A stretch of 64,000 nt of DNA from an uncultured Tenacibaculum sp. (GTDB lineage Bacteria > Bacteroidota > Bacteroidia > Flavobacteriales > Flavobacteriaceae): contig NZ_CANLTU010000014.1 of the NCBI RefSeq assembly GCF_947494125.1, positions 2,177 to 66,176 of the forward strand. The letters run 5' to 3'. Both the position numbers and the translations under genes were made by a program. Below the pieces are notes generated by a model, which was not told where the DNA came from, ran no database searches, and was given only the letters and a program-made list of their open reading frames with translations. Shown one piece after another: positions 18,813 to 39,356 of this stretch. Within the stretch, counting starts at the first letter, position 1. Each line of letters begins with the position of its first letter.

Positions 18813-21800
18813 TTAATTCCTATTTTCTGTATAAAACTCGTAAGCTATTACAGTTTGATTGTAATTATTTATTAGTGATAAATAATTTTGCATTACCTGA
18901 AAATATGCATTAAAACTTTGATTATATTGATATGCATCTATCTCTCCAGATTTATATGCTAATTCCAACTTTTTAATAAATTTTTCCGCTTGTTTTTTCG
19001 TTTTATCTATACTTAACAGTTCGCTTTTTAAATACTTAATTTGATTTTGTAAGCTTTTAAAATTATTTTGAATTGCTATTCTTTTAGATTCATTTTCAAA
19101 TGCTACTTCTTCTTTAATTATCTTTTGTTGCTTAATTTTAGCATTATTTGACCAAAAAGATAATGGAATATTTAAACCTATATTAAATCCTGTATAGTCA
19201 TTATTACCTCCTGTTTTTCTATTAATAATTCCTGCTTTTAATTCTGGAAAATAAGTTGATTTTATTGCTAGCACACTTCTTTCTGCAACTATATTACTTT
19301 TTTCTAAGGCCTTTAAAAAGGTTTCTGAAAGTGTATCTTTGATTATTAAAACTTCCTTTTTATTTGGAAATTTACTCACTGGAATTATAGCTTCCTTTAA
19401 TTGCAATAATTCTTTTAACTCATTTTCCACTTTAAGGAAATCTTTATATACTTTACTTTTTTGAGATTGAACTCCTAAAGATTGTATGGCAGTTAAATCA
19501 TTTTCTAAACCTCCAATTTCTCCTGATTTATATAGCTTTTCTGCTATATTCTTTATCTGGCTCGTATTTTCTTGCTGTTCTTCCATTAAAGAGATCAATC
19601 CAAATAAATAATTCCACTGTTGGTATAGCTTCTTTACTTTCCTTTGAGTTTCTTTTTTTGAAATATCTCTTAAAGAATTTGCTAAAACTACTTTAGATTT
19701 TGCTAACTTTTTTCTCTGTATGTGAGATAGTATTGATCCAAAATTTTGATTTATAGCCCATTCTTTTTCTGATAATCCAGGTGCAACTCCTACATCTTGA
19801 TATTGTACCGATGTTGGTTTTATAATAATAGCTCCTGAAACTAAAGTTTCTTTTTTCTCTATATTTAAAGCTGCCTTTTTTAATAAAACATCTTTCTTTA
19901 AAGCTAAATTTATTACTTCTTTCTCTGATAATTTCCTCGGCATTTCTTGCGCTTGTGCTACTGAAATACTAAAAAGAAAAACAAGAACTGTAATACTTTT
20001 TGAAAGAATTTCTTTCTTTGTTTTAACAGTTTCAAACAGCATATATAATACTGGTAAAATTAATAATGTTAATAAAGTTGCAGATATTAAACCTCCTATA
20101 ACCACTGTAGCCAAAGGCTTTTGAACTTCTGCTCCTGCCGATGATGAAATTGCCATTGGTAAAAAACCTAAAGATGCTACGGCTGCTGTCATAATTACTG
20201 GTCTTAAACGAATTGATGTTCCTTTTTTAACTATTTCTTTTAAATTAGTTATGCCTTCTTTTTTTAAACGATTAAACTCGGCAATCAATACAATACCATT
20301 TAATACAGCTACACCAAATAAGGCTATAAACCCAATTCCTGCTGATATTGAAAATGGCATATCTCGTAACCACAACGCAAATATTCCTCCTATTGCTGAC
20401 ATTGGAATTGCTGTAAAAATTAAAATACTTTGCTTTATTGATTTAAACGTTATGTATAATAATAGAAATATTAATAATAAAGCTACTGGTACTGCTATTC
20501 CAAGACGAGCGCGGGCTTCTTCTAAATTTTTAAACGTTCCTCCGTATGTAATATAGTACCCTGGATCAAATTGGATTTCATTATTTACTTTCTGCTTTAA
20601 TTCAGCAACAATACTGGCAACATCACGTCCACGTACATTAAACCCTACAGTAATTCTACGTTTAGCATCATCACGTTGTATTTGATTTGGTCCTGTTTTA
20701 AAATCAACATTGGCTACATTTGCTAGCGGTATTTGAGCTCCGTTTGGCGTTGTTATATATAGTTTACGGATATCTTCTATATTAGCTCTATTCTTTTTTG
20801 CTAAGCGAACTACTAAATCAAAACGCTTTTCACCTTCATAAACAGAACCTGCATTTTGACCTGCAAATGCTGCATTTATAGCTGTATTTACATCAGATAT
20901 ATTTAATCCATAATACGCTAATTGGCTTCTATTATAATCTATTACAATTTGCTTAAGCCCTGTCATTTTCTCTACATACAAATCTTCTGCTCCTTCAACT
21001 TTTGGAATAATCTTACTCAGTTCATTTCCATATTTTACTAATTTATCTAAATCTTCTCCATAAATTTTTAAAACTACATCTTGCCTTGCTCCTGTCATTA
21101 ACTCATTAAAACGCATTTGAATAGGTTGTTGAAATCCAAATGAAACCCCCAACATATTGTCTTCTAATATTTTTTGCATTTTAGTAGTCAACTCATTTTT
21201 AGTTTCTGCTTTTGTCCACTTATCCTTATCTTTTAAAATAATTATAATATCTGAAGCTTCAATTGGCATTGGATCTGTAGGTATTTCTGAGGAACCTATT
21301 CTACTTACTATTTGCTCTATTTCATCTGGAAATTCTTTCAGTAATAATTCTGATGATTTATTAGAAACTTCTACTGTATAGGATAATGAACTCCCTGTAG
21401 AAACAATGGTTTGTACTGCTAAATCTCCTTCATCTAATGATGGTATAAATTCTGATCCCATTTTTGAAAAAGTAAACAGACTCAATCCAAAAATTAATAT
21501 GGCTCCAACAACAACTTTCTTTTGATTACCAAGTACAAATTCTAACAAAGGTGTATACCCTCTTTGTATTGTTTCAATAATTTTATCGGAAATATTCTTC
21601 TTATTGTTAATGGTCTTTTTAAGAAACAATGCACTCATCATAGGTACGTAGCTTAACGACAAAAGGAAAGCTCCTAAAATTGCAAAACTTACTGTCATAG
21701 CCATAGGTTTAAACATTTTTCCTTCTATACCTACTAATGCTAAAATTGGTAAATACACAATTAGAATAATGATTTCTCCAAAAGCTGCACTGGTTCTAAT

Positions 21801-23132
21801 TTTTGATGCAGAATTATATACTTCTTCATCCATTTCTTCTTGTGAAAGCTTTACTCCTGACTTTTTCAATCCTAAATAATGCAAAGTAGCTTCTACAATT
21901 ATTACAGAGCCATCTACAATAATTCCAAAATCTATAGCTCCTAAACTCATTAGGTTACCAGAAACGCCAAAAACGTTCATTAAGCTTATAGCAAATAGCA
22001 TTGCTAATGGAATTACTGATGCTACAATTAACCCCGCTCTTAAATTTCCTAATAGTAATACTAGTATAAAAATTACAATTAATGCTCCTTCTACAAGATT
22101 TGTTGCTACTGTTTTAATAGCTTTATCTACTAATTTTGTTCTATCTAAAAATGGCCTTATTGCGACACCTTCTGGTAAGCTTTTTTCTATTTGAACTATT
22201 CGTTCTTTTACATCTTTAATTACCTTTGATGAATTTGCTCCTTTTAGCATCATTACAATTCCTCCAACTACTTCTCCATCGGCATTTCTTGTCATTGCTC
22301 CATAACGAACTGCATGTCCTAATTGTACTTTTCCTATGTCTTTAATTAAAATAGGTGTGCCATTTTCAGTATTTTTTACTACTATATTTCTTATATCCTC
22401 AGGTGTTTTTATTAACCCTTGACTTCGAATAAAATAGGCTTTAGGATTTTTATCTATGTAGGCTCCTCCAGTATTTTGGTTGTTATTTTCTAAAGCTTTA
22501 AAAACTTCATTAATACTTACATTTAATGATTGCAACCTCTCTGGTTGGATGGCTACTTCATATTGTTTTAAAAAACCTCCAAAGCTACTTACATCTGCTA
22601 CTCCTTCTATTCCTAGTAGTTGTCGACGAACTATCCAATCTTGAATGGAACGTAATTCCATTATTGGGTACAGCTTTTCAAATCCATTTTTAGCATATAA
22701 AGTATATTGATATATTTCTCCTAATCCAGTTGTTACCGGCGCCATTTCTGGAGTTCCTACTCCTTCTGGTACTTGATTCTTTGCTTCAACTAAGCGTTCA
22801 CTTATTTGTTGACGTGCCCAATAAATATCTACTTTATCTTTAAAAACGACTGTTACTACACTTAAACCAAATCGAGAAAAAGATCGTATTTCTTCTATAT
22901 TTGGAATACTCGACATTGTCATTTCTATTGGAAAAGTAACTAAGCGCTCAATGTCTTGGGCTGACTGTGATGGTGCTGATGTTATTATTTGCACCTGATT
23001 GTTGGTTATATCCGGTACTGCATCAATTGGTAATTGTTTTAAGGAATATAATCCCCATCCAATTAATGCGAATACCAAAGCTCCAATAATCAATTTATTT
23101 TTAATTGAAAATTTTATGATATTATCTAACAT
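18813..23132 (-). CDS. czcA: CzcA/CusA heavy-metal RND transporter fused to a C-terminal TolC/CzcC-like outer membrane factor
   Basis: DAVPDITNNQVQ, GAIDFGIIVDGSVIIVE and RLRPVIMTA motifs in the first ~1040 aa; ~380 aa helical OMF-like C-terminal domain. Confidence 0.93.
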   Translation of the reverse strand: MLDNIIKFSIKNKLIIGALVFALIGWGLYSLKQLPIDAVPDITNNQVQIITSAPSQSAQDIERLVTFPIEMTMSSIPNIEEIRSFSRFGLSVVTVVFKDKVDIYWARQQISERLVEAKNQVPEGVGTPEMAPVTTGLGEIYQYTLYAKNGFEKLYPIMELRSIQDWIVRRQLLGIEGVADVSSFGGFLKQYEVAIQPERLQSLNVSINEVFKALENNNQNTGGAYIDKNPKAYFIRSQGLIKTPEDIRNIVVKNTENGTPILIKDIGKVQLGHAVRYGAMTRNADGEVVGGIVMMLKGANSSKVIKDVKERIVQIEKSLPEGVAIRPFLDRTKLVDKAIKTVATNLVEGALIVIFILVLLLGNLRAGLIVASVIPLAMLFAISLMNVFGVSGNLMSLGAIDFGIIVDGSVIIVEATLHYLGLKKSGVKLSQEEMDEEVYNSASKIRTSAAFGEIIILIVYLPILALVGIEGKMFKPMAMTVSFAILGAFLLSLSYVPMMSALFLKKTINNKKNISDKIIETIQRGYTPLLEFVLGNQKKVVVGAILIFGLSLFTFSKMGSEFIPSLDEGDLAVQTIVSTGSSLSYTVEVSNKSSELLLKEFPDEIEQIVSRIGSSEIPTDPMPIEASDIIIILKDKDKWTKAETKNELTTKMQKILEDNMLGVSFGFQQPIQMRFNELMTGARQDVVLKIYGEDLDKLVKYGNELSKIIPKVEGAEDLYVEKMTGLKQIVIDYNRSQLAYYGLNISDVNTAINAAFAGQNAGSVYEGEKRFDLVVRLAKKNRANIEDIRKLYITTPNGAQIPLANVANVDFKTGPNQIQRDDAKRRITVGFNVRGRDVASIVAELKQKVNNEIQFDPGYYITYGGTFKNLEEARARLGIAVPVALLLIFLLLYITFKSIKQSILIFTAIPMSAIGGIFALWLRDMPFSISAGIGFIALFGVAVLNGIVLIAEFNRLKKEGITNLKEIVKKGTSIRLRPVIMTAAVASLGFLPMAISSSAGAEVQKPLATVVIGGLISATLLTLLILPVLYMLFETVKTKKEILSKSITVLVFLFSISVAQAQEMPRKLSEKEVINLALKKDVLLKKAALNIEKKETLVSGAIIIKPTSVQYQDVGVAPGLSEKEWAINQNFGSILSHIQRKKLAKSKVVLANSLRDISKKETQRKVKKLYQQWNYLFGLISLMEEQQENTSQIKNIAEKLYKSGEIGGLENDLTAIQSLGVQSQKSKVYKDFLKVENELKELLQLKEAIIPVSKFPNKKEVLIIKDTLSETFLKALEKSNIVAERSVLAIKSTYFPELKAGIINRKTGGNNDYTGFNIGLNIPLSFWSNNAKIKQQKIIKEEVAFENESKRIAIQNNFKSLQNQIKYLKSELLSIDKTKKQAEKFIKKLELAYKSGEIDAYQYNQSFNAYFQVMQNYLSLINNYNQTVIAYEFYTENRN

Positions 23133-23142
23133 TTTTCATGTA

Positions 23143-23262
23143 TTTAATTCTATTTTAATATGATATATCCCGAATTAACTTTGAAAGTTATCGGTATAAC
23201 AACATGTAATTCTTGTGTAGACAAGAATTATAAACTGTTAAAATTTAAAATGTAGAATTAAA
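23143..23262 (-). promoter_or_regulatory. Predicted multi-stem RNA structure sequestering the czcA translation-initiation region
   Basis: 23253-23262 is complementary to 23143-23152, and 23245-23250 to 23153-23158. The enclosed hairpins are 23207-23230 (10 bp) and 23170-23194. Confidence 0.6.
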
Positions 23263-23599
23263 CCCGTGGAGGCTGAAAAAGTTCATCTAAAAAGTTAGAT
23301 GCATTTAAATGTTTACGAAAAAGTATTTTCTTTTTTACTTGTAATGGTTTTACAAATAAATAATTAAATTCTTTTGTAATAATAGCATTAGATATACCAA
23401 GAGAAATACAGTGATGATGATGCTCTTTACTTTTCTCTTCTTCTGTATCATTTTCATGATGAGAATCATGATGTGTACTATCTATTACATCAATATGTGC
23501 CTCAGTTAAATCGTCTTCAAAAATAATAGCATCCGCATGTGCTTGTACTGGTGGTACAAACAATAAAAGCGTTAATATTATGATACTAATATTTTTCAA
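23258..23599 (-). CDS. Small His-rich leader ORF (DUF6660/DUF2946-like) ending LFQPPRV; candidate arrest peptide
   Basis: 113 aa, TTG start, signal peptide (AHA|D), HHDSHH...HHHHC cluster, C-terminal QPP; -7 element TAGCTTTG at 23629-23622. Confidence 0.75.
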   Translation of the reverse strand: MKNISIIILTLLLFVPPVQAHADAIIFEDDLTEAHIDVIDSTHHDSHHENDTEEEKSKEHHHHCISLGISNAIITKEFNYLFVKPLQVKKKILFRKHLNASNFLDELFQPPRV

Positions 23600-35125: not shown

Positions 35126-35905
35126 ATGGAAATATTTTTACAACCCGATACTTGGGGTGCATTAGTAACCTTAACATTTTTAGAAATCGTTTTAGGTATT
35201 GATAATATTATATTTATATCAATTGCAGCTAATAAATTACCTGAAAAACTACAAAAAAAAGCTACCAATATAGGTTTAGTATTAGCAATGGTATTACGTA
35301 TTGCTTTACTTTTTGGTATTTCATTACTTATTGCAATGAATGCTCCTCTTTTTCATATAGATTTCTCTTGGTTTAAAGCAGGTTTTACTGGTCAAGCATT
35401 AATATTATTTGCTGGAGGTATATTTCTTCTTTATAAGAGTACCAAAGAAATCCATCATAAAGTAGAGGGTCATGAAGATGAAGATACAGATGGTAAACCT
35501 CAAAAGGGTTATACATTAACACAAGCTATAATTCAAATAACTTTAATTAATATTGTATTCTCATTCGACTCTATTTTAACTGCAGTAGGTATGACTAACG
35601 GTGTTGAAGGTGCAATGGTTATTATGATTGCTTCAGTTATTCTATCTATGATTATTATGATGTTATTTGCGAATCCAGTTGGTAAGTTTGTAAACAAACA
35701 CCCAACAATTCAAATGTTAGGATTATCATTCTTAATATTAATTGGATTCATGCTAATTGCTGAAAGTGCTCACTTATCACACGCTAAATTATTTGGTGAA
35801 GAAATAGGTGTTATACCAAAAGGATATTTATATTTTGCTATTACCTTTTCTTTAGGTGTAGAGATGTTAAATATGCGTATTAGAGGAAGTAAAAAAAACC
35901 ATTAA
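35126..35905 (+). CDS. TerC family integral membrane protein (Alx/MeeF-like)
   Basis: LEIVLGIDNIIF, FSFDSILTAVG and YLYFAITFS motifs. Confidence 0.92.
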   Translation: MEIFLQPDTWGALVTLTFLEIVLGIDNIIFISIAANKLPEKLQKKATNIGLVLAMVLRIALLFGISLLIAMNAPLFHIDFSWFKAGFTGQALILFAGGIFLLYKSTKEIHHKVEGHEDEDTDGKPQKGYTLTQAIIQITLINIVFSFDSILTAVGMTNGVEGAMVIMIASVILSMIIMMLFANPVGKFVNKHPTIQMLGLSFLILIGFMLIAESAHLSHAKLFGEEIGVIPKGYLYFAITFSLGVEMLNMRIRGSKKNH

Positions 35906-35928: not shown

Positions 35929-35969
35929 AATACCCGATAGTCGTAAAGGTTATCGGGTATTTATTTTTT
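35929..35969 (+). terminator. Intrinsic terminator of the purB-adk-lipoprotein-terC operon
   Basis: aatacccgata / tatcgggtatt stem followed by tatttttt. Confidence 0.85.
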
Positions 35970-35990
35970 AATACCTTTGCTTCTGAAATC

Positions 35991-36311
35991 ATGTTTCGCT
36001 TAAAAAAACATATAGCCCTTCTAAGTTTACTTGTGTTACTATTACCATCAGTAATACAAATAGCTCATAGTTTTGAAAATCATGAACATACCATTTGTTC
36101 ATCTATTGACGATCATCACTTTCATGAACAAGAATTAGATTGTTCTTTATTTCATTATCAACTTCAAGTTTTCTCGTATTCAACAGCTTCAAATTATGCT
36201 GTAATACCACAACATTTTTATAAAAAAGAATACACTTTTCTACCTCAAGTAGTTTCTGTTGTTTATTCCGATAAAAGAACCTCACGAGGACCTCCTTATT
36301 TTACTGTTTAA
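35991..36311 (+). CDS. Small His/Cys-rich leader ORF ending RGPP (DUF2946/CruR-like candidate arrest peptide)
   Basis: 106 aa; N-terminal TM/signal; HxxxxHEHxxC...HHFHE...C...H cluster; RGPP at 36285-36296; -7 element TACCTTTG at 35972-35979. Confidence 0.78.
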   Translation: MFRLKKHIALLSLLVLLLPSVIQIAHSFENHEHTICSSIDDHHFHEQELDCSLFHYQLQVFSYSTASNYAVIPQHFYKKEYTFLPQVVSVVYSDKRTSRGPPYFTV

Positions 36312-36363
36312 TCAAATTGTTATAAAAAAAAGAATAACAAACTTATTATTTCACAGTAAAATA
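36297..36363 (+). promoter_or_regulatory. Predicted hairpin sequestering the TonB receptor translation-initiation region
   Basis: 36297-36307 (tattttactgt) is the exact reverse complement of 36353-36363 (acagtaaaata; -17 to -7 of the ATG); inner stem 36317-36323/36334-36340. Confidence 0.65.
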
Positions 36364-36369
36364 CATTAA

Positions 36370-38631
36370 ATGAAAAAAATAGTATTCTTCCTATTGTTTA
36401 TAGGAACGTCGGTTATATACGCGCAAAATAATTTATCAGGAAAAATTACAGACATTAATAAATCACCTCTTTTAGGAGTTGAAGTATTCTCAAATCAATT
36501 ACATAAAGGAACAGTTTCTAATGATCAAGGAGACTATACTTTTAAAAACATTCCAAATGGAAAAGTTACTATTAACTTTACTTTTTTAGGATTTAAAACT
36601 GTTTCTAAAGAATTTATTTTTAACAATCAGAATATTACATTTGATTTGCAATTGGAAGAATCTGTTTTTAAAATAGATGAAATTATAATTTCTACACCTT
36701 TTAATAAATTACAATCTGAAAATGTAATGAAAGTAGAACGATTGTCTGCTAAAGCTATCCAAAAAACTGGAGCCACTACGTTATCTGAAGGAATTACAAA
36801 TATAGCTGGAGTTTCTCAAATTACAACTGGAGCTTCAATTGGTAAGCCAGTAATAAGAGGTTTAAGTGGTAATAGAGTATTAGTATACACGCAAGGTATT
36901 CGTTTAGAAAACCAGCAATTTGGAGGCGAACATGGGTTAGGAATAAGCGATGCAGGAATTGAAAGTATTGAAGTTATAAAAGGACCTGCTTCTTTATTAT
37001 ATGGTTCAGATGCTTTAGGAGGTGTTTTATATATTCAACCAGAAAAATTTGCTCCAGAAAACACTACTAAATTCAATGTAAATCAACGTTACTTTAGTAA
37101 TACAATAGGAAGCAATACTTCATTAGGGGTAAAATCGTCTCTTAAAAATTGGCAATTTTTAGCAAGAGGAACCTATGCTATTCATTCAGATTATAAAACT
37201 CCTAATCAAAGAGCAACCAATACTCGTTTTAAAGAAAAAGATTTAAAACTTGGTGTTGGTTTTCATGAAAAAAACTTCTCTTCTGAATTACGTTATAATT
37301 TTAATAATTCAAGACTTGGATTAACTGAAGGTATCGGTGAACAAACTAAAGAAACACATTTAGAAATTCCTTTTCAAGATATAGATAATCATATTATTAG
37401 TTTACACAATCATTTATTCTTCAAAAACTCAAAATTAGATATTGATTTAGGATATACTATAAACAATAGAAAAGAGTTTGAAGAGCATGAGGAACACGAA
37501 GAAGGTGAAACCGAAGAAGAACATGAAGAGCACGAAGAAGGTGAAGCAGCTTTAAGTATGAAGTTAAAAACATTTAGCTATAACACTAAATATCATTTTC
37601 CTAAAATGAATAAGTTTGAACTTTTAATTGGTACTCAAGGATTGCATCAAACAAATACTAATTTTGGCGAAGAATTATTAATACCTAATGCTAAAATTAA
37701 TGATTTTGGGGTATTTACTACTGCTAATTTTGAACTTAGTAATAATACTCGTTTACAAGGAGGTATACGTTTTGACAACCGATCTATTAAAACAGAAAGA
37801 CATGAAGTACAACATGAAAATGAAGTACATATTTTCAATACCATAGATAAATCATTTAATAGTTTTACTGCCTCATTAGGATTGAAAACTAAATTATTTG
37901 CTGTTTTAAATACACGTATTAATATAGCTAATGGTTTTAGGGCTCCTAATTTAGCAGAATTAACTTCTAATGGAGTTCATCATGGAACGAATCGTTTTGA
38001 AAAAGGAAATAATAATCTTGTTAACGAGAAAAATTTACAATTAGATATTTCATTTGATTATAATACTGAGCACTTTGAAATATTTGCCAATGGATTTTAT
38101 AATAAATTAAACAACTATATTTATTTATCACCAACAGGTGAAATTGAAGACGGTGCTCCAGTTTATACGTATTTACAAGAAGATGCTAAATTATATGGTG
38201 GTGAATTTGGTTTTCATTTACACCCACACCCATTAGATTGGTTACATATAGAAAGTAGTTTTGAAACAGTTATAGGTAAACAGGATAGTGGTAACTATTT
38301 ACCCTTAATACCAGCTAATGCATGGAAGAATACACTTAGAACAGAGTTTTCTATTAAAAAATGGTTGCAACATGGTTATACATCATTAAGTATGCACTCA
38401 TATTTTAAACAAAACAATGTTAGTCAATTTGAAACTACCACGCCTGCTTATAATTTGATAAACTTTGGTTTTGGAGGAGATATCATGATTAACAAATATA
38501 AGTTTACTACGTCTGTAGCTATAAATAACCTTTTTAATGAAAAATATATTAACCATTTATCTAGATTAAAATCAAATGGAATACTAAATCCTGGTAGAAA
38601 TATTGTTCTAGGTTTACAGTTTAATATATAG
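36370..38631 (+). CDS. TonB-dependent receptor with His/Glu-rich loops, probable divalent-metal (Zn/Ni/Co) importer
   Basis: Plug motifs KPVIRGLSGNRV and IEVIKGPASLLYGSDALGGV; EEHEEHEEGE x2, HEVQHENEVH and GVHHGT; C-terminal GRNIVLGLQFNI. Confidence 0.9.
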   Translation: MKKIVFFLLFIGTSVIYAQNNLSGKITDINKSPLLGVEVFSNQLHKGTVSNDQGDYTFKNIPNGKVTINFTFLGFKTVSKEFIFNNQNITFDLQLEESVFKIDEIIISTPFNKLQSENVMKVERLSAKAIQKTGATTLSEGITNIAGVSQITTGASIGKPVIRGLSGNRVLVYTQGIRLENQQFGGEHGLGISDAGIESIEVIKGPASLLYGSDALGGVLYIQPEKFAPENTTKFNVNQRYFSNTIGSNTSLGVKSSLKNWQFLARGTYAIHSDYKTPNQRATNTRFKEKDLKLGVGFHEKNFSSELRYNFNNSRLGLTEGIGEQTKETHLEIPFQDIDNHIISLHNHLFFKNSKLDIDLGYTINNRKEFEEHEEHEEGETEEEHEEHEEGEAALSMKLKTFSYNTKYHFPKMNKFELLIGTQGLHQTNTNFGEELLIPNAKINDFGVFTTANFELSNNTRLQGGIRFDNRSIKTERHEVQHENEVHIFNTIDKSFNSFTASLGLKTKLFAVLNTRINIANGFRAPNLAELTSNGVHHGTNRFEKGNNNLVNEKNLQLDISFDYNTEHFEIFANGFYNKLNNYIYLSPTGEIEDGAPVYTYLQEDAKLYGGEFGFHLHPHPLDWLHIESSFETVIGKQDSGNYLPLIPANAWKNTLRTEFSIKKWLQHGYTSLSMHSYFKQNNVSQFETTTPAYNLINFGFGGDIMINKYKFTTSVAINNLFNEKYINHLSRLKSNGILNPGRNIVLGLQFNI
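37480..37545 (+). repeat. Tandem coding repeat EEHEEHEEGE x2
   Basis: Two 30-nt near-identical units (37480-37509 and 37516-37545). Confidence 0.8.
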
Positions 38632-38638
38632 AAAATCA

Positions 38639-38665
38639 AAAACTCCCCAAATTTTGGGGAGTTTT
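38639..38665. terminator. Bidirectional terminator between the TonB receptor and msrA
   Basis: aaaactccccaa-att-ttggggagtttt. Confidence 0.82.
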
Positions 38666-38699: not shown

Positions 38700-39356
38700 T
38701 TAATGCTTTTCCTTTTTAAGCAATTCTGGAAATTTTCGCTTAAAACGATTTAATCTAGGAATAGAAACTTTTTGAACATAAGGGTTTTCAGGATGCAGCT
38801 TTTCATAATTTTGATGGTATTCTTCTGCTGGATAAAACTTAGTGAATTTTGTTACTTCAGTAACTATTTTCCCCTTATAAAACTCTTTATTTAATTTCTT
38901 AATAGTACTCTCTATGATTTGTTTCTCTTTTTCATTTTTATAAAATGCAATAGATCTATATTGTGTACCATAATCTGGATGTTGTCCATTTTTGGTAGTT
39001 GGATTATGTGATCCGAAGTAAACATCTACCAAGGTTTGAAAACTAACTTTTTTAGTATTATAATAAACCGCAACAGTTTCAGCATGCCCTGTTCTACCAG
39101 TACCTATTTTTCTATACGTTGGATTTTTTGTGAGACCTCCTGCGTAACCTGAGACAGCTTCCTCCACTCCTTTTACACTTTCAAAAATAGCTTCAACACA
39201 CCAAAAACACCCACTAGCAAAATAGGCTACTTCTGTTTTTTCTAAATAGTTTATTGCCTCATTGTTTTCTATCTTTACTTGTTTCTCTGTGAAATTTGTA
39301 AAAATAATAGTTAAAAAGAGCACAGCTAAAAGTGCTATTGGTTTAAGTATCTTCAT
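38700..39356 (-). CDS. msrA: Peptide-methionine (S)-S-oxide reductase with export signal
   Basis: ASGCFWCVE, GHAETV, GTQYRS and AEEYHQNY motifs; hydrophobic N-terminus. Confidence 0.95.
   Translation of the reverse strand: MKILKPIALLAVLFLTIIFTNFTEKQVKIENNEAINYLEKTEVAYFASGCFWCVEAIFESVKGVEEAVSGYAGGLTKNPTYRKIGTGRTGHAETVAVYYNTKKVSFQTLVDVYFGSHNPTTKNGQHPDYGTQYRSIAFYKNEKEKQIIESTIKKLNKEFYKGKIVTEVTKFTKFYPAEEYHQNYEKLHPENPYVQKVSIPRLNRFKRKFPELLKKEKH

Follow-up and report, generated by a model that had tools for sequence, protein, structure and literature searches.

A candidate metal-sensing arrest peptide and a covarying hairpin upstream of a TonB-dependent receptor in Tenacibaculum and other Flavobacteriaceae

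A 64,000-nucleotide (nt) stretch of DNA from an uncultured Tenacibaculum sp. (assembly GCF_947494125.1, contig NZ_CANLTU010000014.1, positions 2,177 to 66,176 of the forward strand), referred to here as the window, carries an open reading frame (ORF) of 106 amino acids (aa) directly upstream of a gene for a TonB-dependent receptor. With a probability of roughly 0.6, this leader acts as a CruR/CutF-type regulatory nascent chain, in which ribosome arrest at a C-terminal RGPP motif melts an mRNA hairpin over the receptor's initiation region and metal binding releases the arrest to turn the importer off. An arrest-plus-hairpin switch of some sign is likely; the metal and the direction of control are less certain. 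The reading draws on four kinds of evidence: the anatomy of the leader and its mRNA, the conservation of its residues across a large protein family, a length ruler between the putative metal ligands and the arrest motif, and covariation of the hairpin among relatives.

Anatomy of the leader-receptor unit

The element consists of the following features, with positions counted from the first letter of the window.

36297-36307, + strand: 5' arm of the hairpin, in the last leader codons just 5' of the stop codon, TATTTTACTGT
36353-36363, + strand: 3' arm of the hairpin, positions -17 to -7 of the receptor ATG in the A-rich initiation region, ACAGTAAAATA
36317-36340, + strand: inner stem-loop of 7 base pairs (bp), 36317-36323 with 36334-36340, part of the minimum-free-energy fold
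35991-36311, + strand: leader ORF, 106 aa, with an N-terminal transmembrane (TM) or signal helix, a His/Cys cluster, a spacer, RGPP and a four-residue tail
36003-36065, + strand: hydrophobic stretch at the N-terminus, residues 5-25 or so, that follows a basic n-region (sequence and AlphaFold helix)
36066-36143, + strand: putative metal-ligand cluster H26-x4-H31-x-H33-x2-C36 ... H43-x-H45 ... C51 (alignment conservation)
36144-36284, + strand: spacer, residues 52-98, fixed in length and without sequence conservation (alignments; low AlphaFold confidence)
36285-36296, + strand: arrest-type motif R99-G-P-P (position and family counts)
36370-38631, + strand: TonB-dependent receptor, 753 aa, with a CarboxypepD_reg-like domain, plug and barrel, and a Glu/His-rich loop at about residues 368-392

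Translation of 35991-36311 gives the leader protein MFRLKKHIALLSLLVLLLPSVIQIAHSFENHEHTICSSIDDHHFHEQELDCS...TSRGPPYFTV. RGPP occupies residues 99-102 of 106, and the stop codon lies at 36309-36311. The ORF, its N-terminal helix, its His and Cys residues (H26, H31, H33, C36, H42, H43, H45, C51 and H55) and the RGPP motif all stand where a preliminary description of the window had placed them. When supplied with the family alignment, AlphaFold is confident solely for helix 2-28, with a predicted local distance difference test score (pLDDT) of 86-97. Beyond residue 28 the pLDDT is 54-71, the predicted template modelling score is 0.33, and no folded domain past the helix appears in this model. Its sequence suggests that the helix acts as an export signal or as an Nin-Cout anchor.

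Conservation of the leader family

A profile search of 1.84 billion representative sequences recovers 699 family proteins at E<=0.001, and the nearest homologues of the window leader are found in Tenacibaculum only. In six-frame searches the family is present in 243 of 301 Flavobacteriaceae genomes, representing 242 of 300 genera, and nearly always as one copy per genome. A Bacteroidota-wide sample of 201 genomes yields matches in 22, nine of which belong to organisms outside Flavobacteriaceae.

Of 165 family members, 157 have RGPP (96 proteins) or RAPP (61 proteins) at a distance of 2-6 residues from the C-terminus. The window leader is the sole ORF in its 3.85-Mb genome that has R[AG]PP near the C-terminus and precedes a gene. 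H31, C51, R99, P101 and P102 are invariant in an alignment of 64 sequences with a mean column identity of 30%, and P19, H26, H33, C36, H43 and H45 are conserved at 90% or more; residues 55-97 in the same alignment have no consensus whatsoever. Seven residues of the nine-residue ligand cluster named in the preliminary description (H26, H31, H33, C36, H43, H45 and C51) are therefore conserved, and the other two, H42 and H55, are not conserved across the family alignments.

The unconserved stretch has a fixed length. Of 141 proteins, 111 have 47 residues between C51 and the arginine, and 139 have 46-48. The C51 position is part of a C-x-x-C motif in 46 of 154 family members (30%), and the second Cys of these proteins is 43-45 residues from the arginine. 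The window leader has C51-S-L-F54 at this position and so lacks CXXC.

No Pfam or NCBIfam family exceeds its threshold in scans of the leader and 26 homologues, and the sub-threshold hints in these scans are DUF2946 (E=0.018) and CzcI (E=0.02). The preliminary description had pointed to DUF2946, the family of CruR, as a possible relative. By the Pfam model (PF11162, gathering score 23.7 bits) the window leader is not a member: neither it nor 16 Tenacibaculum homologues match at E<=10, and a six-frame search of the whole window genome finds no DUF2946 match under conditions in which control genomes did match. One of ten distant family members scores 16.2 bits (E=0.018). Remote homology with DUF2946/CruR is suggested because the architecture is shared, including the optional CXXC at the same distance.

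Several homologues depart from the common pattern. One large T. finnmarkense cluster (P0008) carries RGSP in place of RGPP, and the leader tail of a T. piscium locus (L004) is frameshifted to RGPPLFYCLK. Two divergent homologues from genus g174 (L059 and L060), with C-P-V-C and ...LRAPPALF tails, lie 222-280 nt upstream of an ATP-binding cassette transporter ATPase gene, not a TonB receptor. Several g174 genomes have two or three leader paralogues each.

A hairpin between the leader tail and the receptor start

The 11 nt directly after the second proline codon are the exact reverse complement of the 11 nt at -17 to -7 of the receptor ATG. This perfect pairing and the inner 7-bp stem were both part of the preliminary description and reappear without change. 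The outer duplex has a predicted energy of -11.0 kcal/mol, which is reached by 0 of 2000 shuffles of the 3' region. When upstream gene tails are paired with downstream start regions throughout the window genome, the leader-receptor pair ranks among the top 6 of 820 co-directional gene pairs. The z-score for the fold of the whole region is unremarkable (-1.5), as is expected because the region is AU-rich. The case for the hairpin rests on conservation and covariation, not on overall stability. Rfam contains no relevant family.

Leader and receptor are separated by 58 nt in the window and by 31-60 nt in most genera, and the window spacer is AU-rich and C-poor. Analogous inner stems of different sequence occur in loci L001 and L018 and are absent from genera with 31-45 nt spacers. 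In a folding model of the free mRNA, positions -17 to -7 of the receptor are unpaired with a probability of 0.03. This value rises to 0.68 when a ribosome footprint is masked at RGPP. The stalling-switch design put forward in the preliminary description is thus in keeping with the comparative evidence, which combines an invariant motif, a spacer of fixed length, a covarying hairpin and this footprint model.

A reading of the hairpin as a terminator or attenuator was considered and rejected, given that its AU-rich stem is located on the initiation region and lacks a T-run.

Covariation among relatives

Every Tenacibaculum locus and 28 other genera have a TonB-dependent receptor gene downstream of the leader on the same strand. 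There, the codons following PP and the leader's stop codon are able to base-pair with the sequence just 5' of the receptor ATG, and the sequences of the two arms differ among lineages. Six loci illustrate this.

L005: 5' arm GTTACTATTT, 3' arm AAATAGTAAC
L007: 5' arm TTTAATTTAATTT, 3' arm AAATTAAATTAAA
L008: 5' arm TTTGTAATTT, 3' arm AAATTACAAA
L018: 5' arm TTTTTTATTGTT, 3' arm AACAATAAAAAA
L025: 5' arm GTTAATAGTTAA, 3' arm TTAACTATTAA
L037: 5' arm TTTTGGTT, 3' arm AACCAAAA

Duplex energies of cognate combinations of tail and start region were compared with those of non-cognate combinations, using 20,000 permutations. Cognate pairs average -8.2 kcal/mol in 10 Tenacibaculum lineages, versus -3.8 kcal/mol for non-cognate pairs. 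The corresponding means for the 28 other genera are -8.07 and -3.85 kcal/mol, and in neither set does any of the 20,000 permutations reach the observed sum. An ordinary, unfitted MAFFT alignment of six sequences that are in register has double-sided changes in 5 of 13 pairs. Its covariation score is 0.267, compared with 0.118 for shuffled alignments (0 of 500 reach the observed score) and at most 0.087 for slid controls. Covariation of the stem across Flavobacteriaceae orthologues, which the preliminary description had named as a check, is therefore observed. MAFFT followed by RNAalifold over 23 genera gives no predicted structure, because the arms shift register between genera. The position of the arms is nevertheless confined: in 27 of 28 genera 0-5 nt separate the PP codons from the beginning of the 5' arm, and the distance from the end of the 3' arm to the receptor ATG is 0-12 nt.

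Two groups of loci have longer spacers. In L002, L003 (T. finnmarkense) and L004 (T. piscium) the spacer measures 171-212 nt and tail and start region pair weakly (-3.9 to -7.3 kcal/mol), and this lineage may be losing or rewiring the switch. Spacers of 59-134 nt that hold GC-rich hairpins are found in L042, L038, L029 and L036. L042 has a terminator-like one, AAAGCCCTTTTTAGGGCTATTT, whose 3' half can pair with the leader tail, GCCCTGG. Such hairpins may represent attenuation-type variants of the switch.

Proposed mechanism of gene control

From this anatomy we infer ribosome arrest, metal binding and a sign of response. Translation of the leader would begin on an mRNA with little or no 5' leader, and the N-terminal helix of the protein would take the nascent chain to the membrane. 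In RAPP-type arrested ribosomes, the second proline codon occupies the A site, as in the structures of ApdA and ApdP. A ribosome that arrests in this way at R99-G-P-P would hold approximately the next 12-15 nt, which include the 5' arm, in its mRNA channel. The covered arm could not then pair with -17 to -7, so that the A-rich initiation region would be open and the receptor translated. The fixed ruler implies that, when the ribosome arrests, the His/Cys cluster would sit about 50 residues away from the peptidyl-transferase center, just beyond the exit tunnel and near the membrane-targeting helix. Metal binding to the cluster, possibly by compacting or pulling the chain, would release the arrest. 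Termination four codons later would allow the hairpin to re-form, and the importer would be off when metal is plentiful.

Shine-Dalgarno sequences are ignored by the ribosomes of Bacteroidia; in Flavobacterium johnsoniae, upstream adenines and structure within the initiation region tune initiation (PMC6847099). Under these initiation rules, a hairpin over the A-rich stretch is a plausible off-switch. Metal is taken to be the off signal because the target is an importer and because CruR has been shown to operate with this sign.

Alternative explanations

A hairpin in this position might simply couple translation of the two genes, without regulation, to tie receptor synthesis to that of the leader for stoichiometry. 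The leader would then be a stable membrane or periplasmic accessory, such as a metal chaperone or receptor partner, in which R-x-P-P is structural. Its conservation as a protein with a TM helix and putative metal ligands is compatible with such a role, and any ribosome at the stop codon also opens the stem (-17 to -7 is unpaired with a probability of 0.66 in the model with a terminating ribosome). However, coupling leaves unexplained why an invariant RGPP/RAPP is held at a fixed distance from the ligands over an unconserved spacer, and why the 5' arm falls exactly in the mRNA channel of a PP-paused ribosome. RAPP and RGPP are also strongly avoided in proteomes save in arrest peptides (PMC12992588), and the window genome has no other C-terminal R[AG]PP preceding a gene. 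These observations make unregulated coupling a rather unlikely account. A further alternative is a transcriptional output, as for CruR: the arrested ribosome would protect the RNA being made against Rho or an attenuator, and the hairpin would be incidental. CruR itself acts through Rho-dependent termination, and GC-rich, terminator-like hairpins are present in the longer spacers of some genera (for example, L042 and L038). The short, AU-rich and C-poor spacer of the window argues against a Rho site, however, no terminator lies between leader and receptor, and the element that covaries is the tail/start-region pairing itself. A transcriptional output is accordingly very improbable.

The same device could also work with the opposite sign, as in CutF, such that metal strengthens or prolongs the arrest and the receptor is made when metal is present. 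A receptor that handles a metal complex, or that has a detoxification or signaling role, would provide a rationale. Copper enhances stalling on CutF and turns on the downstream gene through a stem-loop over its start region, and the motif, ruler and hairpin anatomy described here are equally compatible with either sign. Set against this are the nature of the downstream gene, an importer-type TonB receptor closest to ZnuD and OprC, and the usual repression of importers by their own metal, as in CruR-BfrG. We consider this reversal unlikely.

Other points weigh against the proposal that RGPP arrest opens the hairpin and metal closes it. The AU-rich hairpin has only moderate stability (-11 kcal/mol), and every translating ribosome transiently opens it, so plain translational coupling would use the hairpin too. 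The long spacers and weak pairing of T. finnmarkense and T. piscium imply that the hairpin design is not obligatory. The second Cys of CXXC is missing from the window leader, and the family falls under the DUF2946 threshold and has no NCBIfam model. The neighboring genes do not identify the metal. Since metal strengthens stalling on CutF, the architecture does not reveal the sign of control.

The receptor and the identity of the metal

The solved structures that match the receptor best are ZnuD, the zinc receptor of Neisseria (1.2e-24), followed by OprC, the copper receptor of Pseudomonas (6e-14). The receptor shares with ZnuD a His/acidic extracellular-type loop, which is richer in His in relatives (up to 10 His per 25 residues). 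Unlike ZnuD and OprC, it has an extra N-terminal CarboxypepD_reg-like domain that is typical of Bacteroidota. It scores far below the NCBIfam equivalog or exception cut-offs for both ZnuD (148.7 versus 950 bits) and TonB-copper (85.7 versus 472 bits).

The pointers to the metal diverge, with ZnuD (zinc) as the closest receptor, OprC (copper) next and a copper-like CXXC in many leaders. Zinc appears to be slightly favored over copper. A more specific proposal is that the leaders are His-type nascent-chain sensors of zinc, or of another non-copper metal, across Flavobacteriaceae, in which periplasmic metal triggers force-sensitive release at RGPP to provide the main switch of a ZnuD-like importer. 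This proposal is tentative, and on present evidence we doubt it more than we favor it. A literature search on zinc-regulated receptors in Flavobacteria returned nothing specific to this receptor, and gene neighborhoods in eight genera contain no conserved metal-specific partner.

The leader family precedes two types of receptor, both of which are found within Tenacibaculum. Type A (the window, L001-L006 and L047-L050) is approximately 740-810 aa long with a His/Asp/Glu-rich loop at about 365-410. Type B (L007-L015, L046 and L051) is approximately 800 aa long, begins with an N-terminal QNC..F.G.V.DFHD and has no such loop. In two type B loci examined (L046 and L051) the receptor is followed by a lipoprotein of about 190 aa without a Pfam family. 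In other genera examined, folE lies downstream of the receptor on the opposite strand, and msrA is beside folE in L046, L050 and L053. This synteny gives no clear hint on the metal.

Comparison with known stalling leaders

CruR (Bp2923, DUF2946) of Bordetella pertussis has an export signal, a CXXC motif, a spacer of 45 +/- 2 residues and RAPP three residues before its end, and is encoded upstream of the TonB-dependent transporter BfrG (PMC9426467). When copper is bound the arrest is relieved, with Rho-dependent termination as the output (Roy et al. 2022, PMC9426467). Lengthening the CruR spacer by five residues strongly reduces copper control (PMC9426467). Like CruR, the window leader is the first gene of a predicted operon with a TonB-dependent receptor and has a putative N-terminal export signal or TM segment, a Cys-containing putative metal motif, a ruler of fixed length (47 residues from C51 and 44 from the CXXC position, versus about 45) and a RAPP-type motif 3-4 residues from the C-terminus. 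By analogy, the expected logic would also be the same, with an importer turned off by its own metal. Unlike CruR, the window leader is under the DUF2946 Pfam threshold, and its sensor is His-rich (H-x4-H-x-H-x2-C ... H-x-H ... C) and lacks a second Cys. Its AU-rich spacer to the next gene is 58 nt rather than 162 nt, a hairpin over the start region takes the place of Rho-dependent termination, and the host uses no Shine-Dalgarno pairing.

CutF of Rhodobacter capsulatus has a signal peptide, a CXXXC motif and a C-terminal proline motif, and its stalled ribosome melts a stem-loop masking the start of cutO (PMC9973294; bioRxiv 10.1101/2025.02.05.636593). A catalogue of 5,334 CutF-like proteins, 19% of them from Bacteroidota (40% when normalized), has TonB proteins as the second most frequent neighbor (Ozturk et al. 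2023, PMC9973294). Members of this catalogue are shorter than 150 aa, have PP among their 15 C-terminal residues as well as a signal, and are followed by a neighbor on the same strand (PMC9973294). The window leader, with 106 aa, PP at 101-102 and a receptor gene 58 nt downstream on the same strand, agrees in size, proline motif and neighbor. With regard to the signal, it has a basic n-region and a hydrophobic helix (2-28) that could be either a cleaved signal or a membrane anchor. As with the stem-loop of CutF, the hairpin shields the downstream initiation region, and it lies within reach of a ribosome positioned at RGPP. The two systems have in common a small, putatively exported protein, a metal motif, a C-terminal proline motif and a short intergenic region. 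The CutF motif, in contrast, is PPP and depends on elongation factor P (EF-P), where RGPP or RAPP is used here. CutF turns on an oxidase with copper; here the target is an importer and the sign is probably reversed. The stem in the window also shields an A-rich region, not a Shine-Dalgarno sequence.

A 2025 survey identifies RAPP and RGPP as the most potent arrest variants and finds small proteins of this kind enriched upstream of TonB-dependent receptors throughout Gram-negative phyla (PMC12992588). The window leader resembles ApdA, ApdP and SecM-like arrest peptides in its C-terminal RGPP/RAPP, its localization signal and its location upstream of a putatively regulated gene (PMC10987492; PMC12992588). 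The classic members of that group differ in monitoring Sec or YidC activity, not metal.

The leader-receptor element joins the motif, ruler and target of CruR to the RNA output of CutF. Its membership in the known CruR/CutF class of metal-sensing stalling leaders is well supported, and it is not a new kind of system. The preliminary description knew of no Flavobacteriaceae example. This stands with respect to experiments, but leaders of the CutF-like and RAPP/RGPP kinds ahead of TonB receptors, among them some in Bacteroidota, already appear in surveys (PMC9973294; PMC12992588). Three aspects are not described in the CruR, CutF and RAPP literature compared here: the His-type sensor, the covarying pairing over a start region that lacks a Shine-Dalgarno sequence, and near-universal presence in one bacterial family.

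Transcript boundaries and neighboring genes

The limits of the unit in the window are indicated by three further features.

35929-35971, + strand: intrinsic terminator of the upstream TerC-family gene, a 14-bp stem (35929-35961) followed by a T-run
35972-35979, + strand: TACCTTTG, which conforms to the Bacteroidota -7 box TAnnTTTG; putative promoter element
38639-38665, no strand assigned: bidirectional terminator stem closing the two-gene unit, toward which msrA converges on the other strand

The succession of terminator and -7 element ahead of the ORF had been recognized in the preliminary description and is found as reported there. The upstream terminator, which occurs at an equivalent position in Tenacibaculum relatives, marks the 5' boundary of the unit. 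Together with the terminator at 38639-38665, it defines leader and receptor as their own two-gene unit. The -7 box is 12-20 nt 5' of the leader start codon in 16 of 16 Tenacibaculum loci, which leaves room for a very short 5' leader or none. Both co-transcription and the transcription start of the unit are read from sequence signals.

The unit is flanked by a TerC/YkoY-family membrane protein gene upstream (35126-35905, + strand) and by the converging msrA downstream (38700-39356, - strand). The arrangement is different in many other genera (L021, L023, L025, L029, L030, L032, L036, L037, L040 and L041), where a gene for a DUF6787 membrane protein lies upstream and its stop codon adjoins or overlaps the leader ATG (TAA-ATG); the DUF937 / DUF6146 / DUF6787 neighborhood around this junction is conserved. 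The Tenacibaculum leader is instead near-leaderless, with its own junction of terminator and promoter 12-20 nt before the start codon.

A second leader-like ORF in the window

Another ORF of the window, 113 aa long and without a Pfam family (23258-23599, - strand), has a signal-like N-terminus and a His-rich region (HHDSHHEN...EHHHHC). Its tail reads ...LFQPPRV*, and 125 nt separate it from a downstream gene for a 1439-aa resistance-nodulation-division efflux protein (18813-23132, - strand). The intervening spacer (23133-23257) folds strongly (z = -4.2), and the stop-codon region of the ORF, GUUUAAUUCUA, pairs with UAGAAUUAAAU just 5' of the AUG of the efflux gene. The tail/start-region design is the same as in the leader-receptor unit, here in front of an exporter.

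Implications

Through these findings, an unannotated protein family of about 700 representative clusters acquires a name and a probable function. They also offer natural material for experiments: a 47-residue ruler, compensatory stem variants, sensors with CXXC or a single Cys, and the apparently decaying T. finnmarkense and T. piscium lineages. If zinc proves to be the ligand, the leader would be the first translational zinc sensor, and its relatives with CXXC or a single Cys and with two receptor types would form a natural series for examining how a metal outside the tunnel cancels arrest at the peptidyl-transferase center. If the proposed switch is real, the CruR/CutF principle extends to a phylum whose translation initiation does not use Shine-Dalgarno pairing. 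Most Flavobacteriaceae, a family that includes marine polymer degraders, fish pathogens and soil and plant-associated species, would then have one metal importer under the translational control of its own leader peptide.

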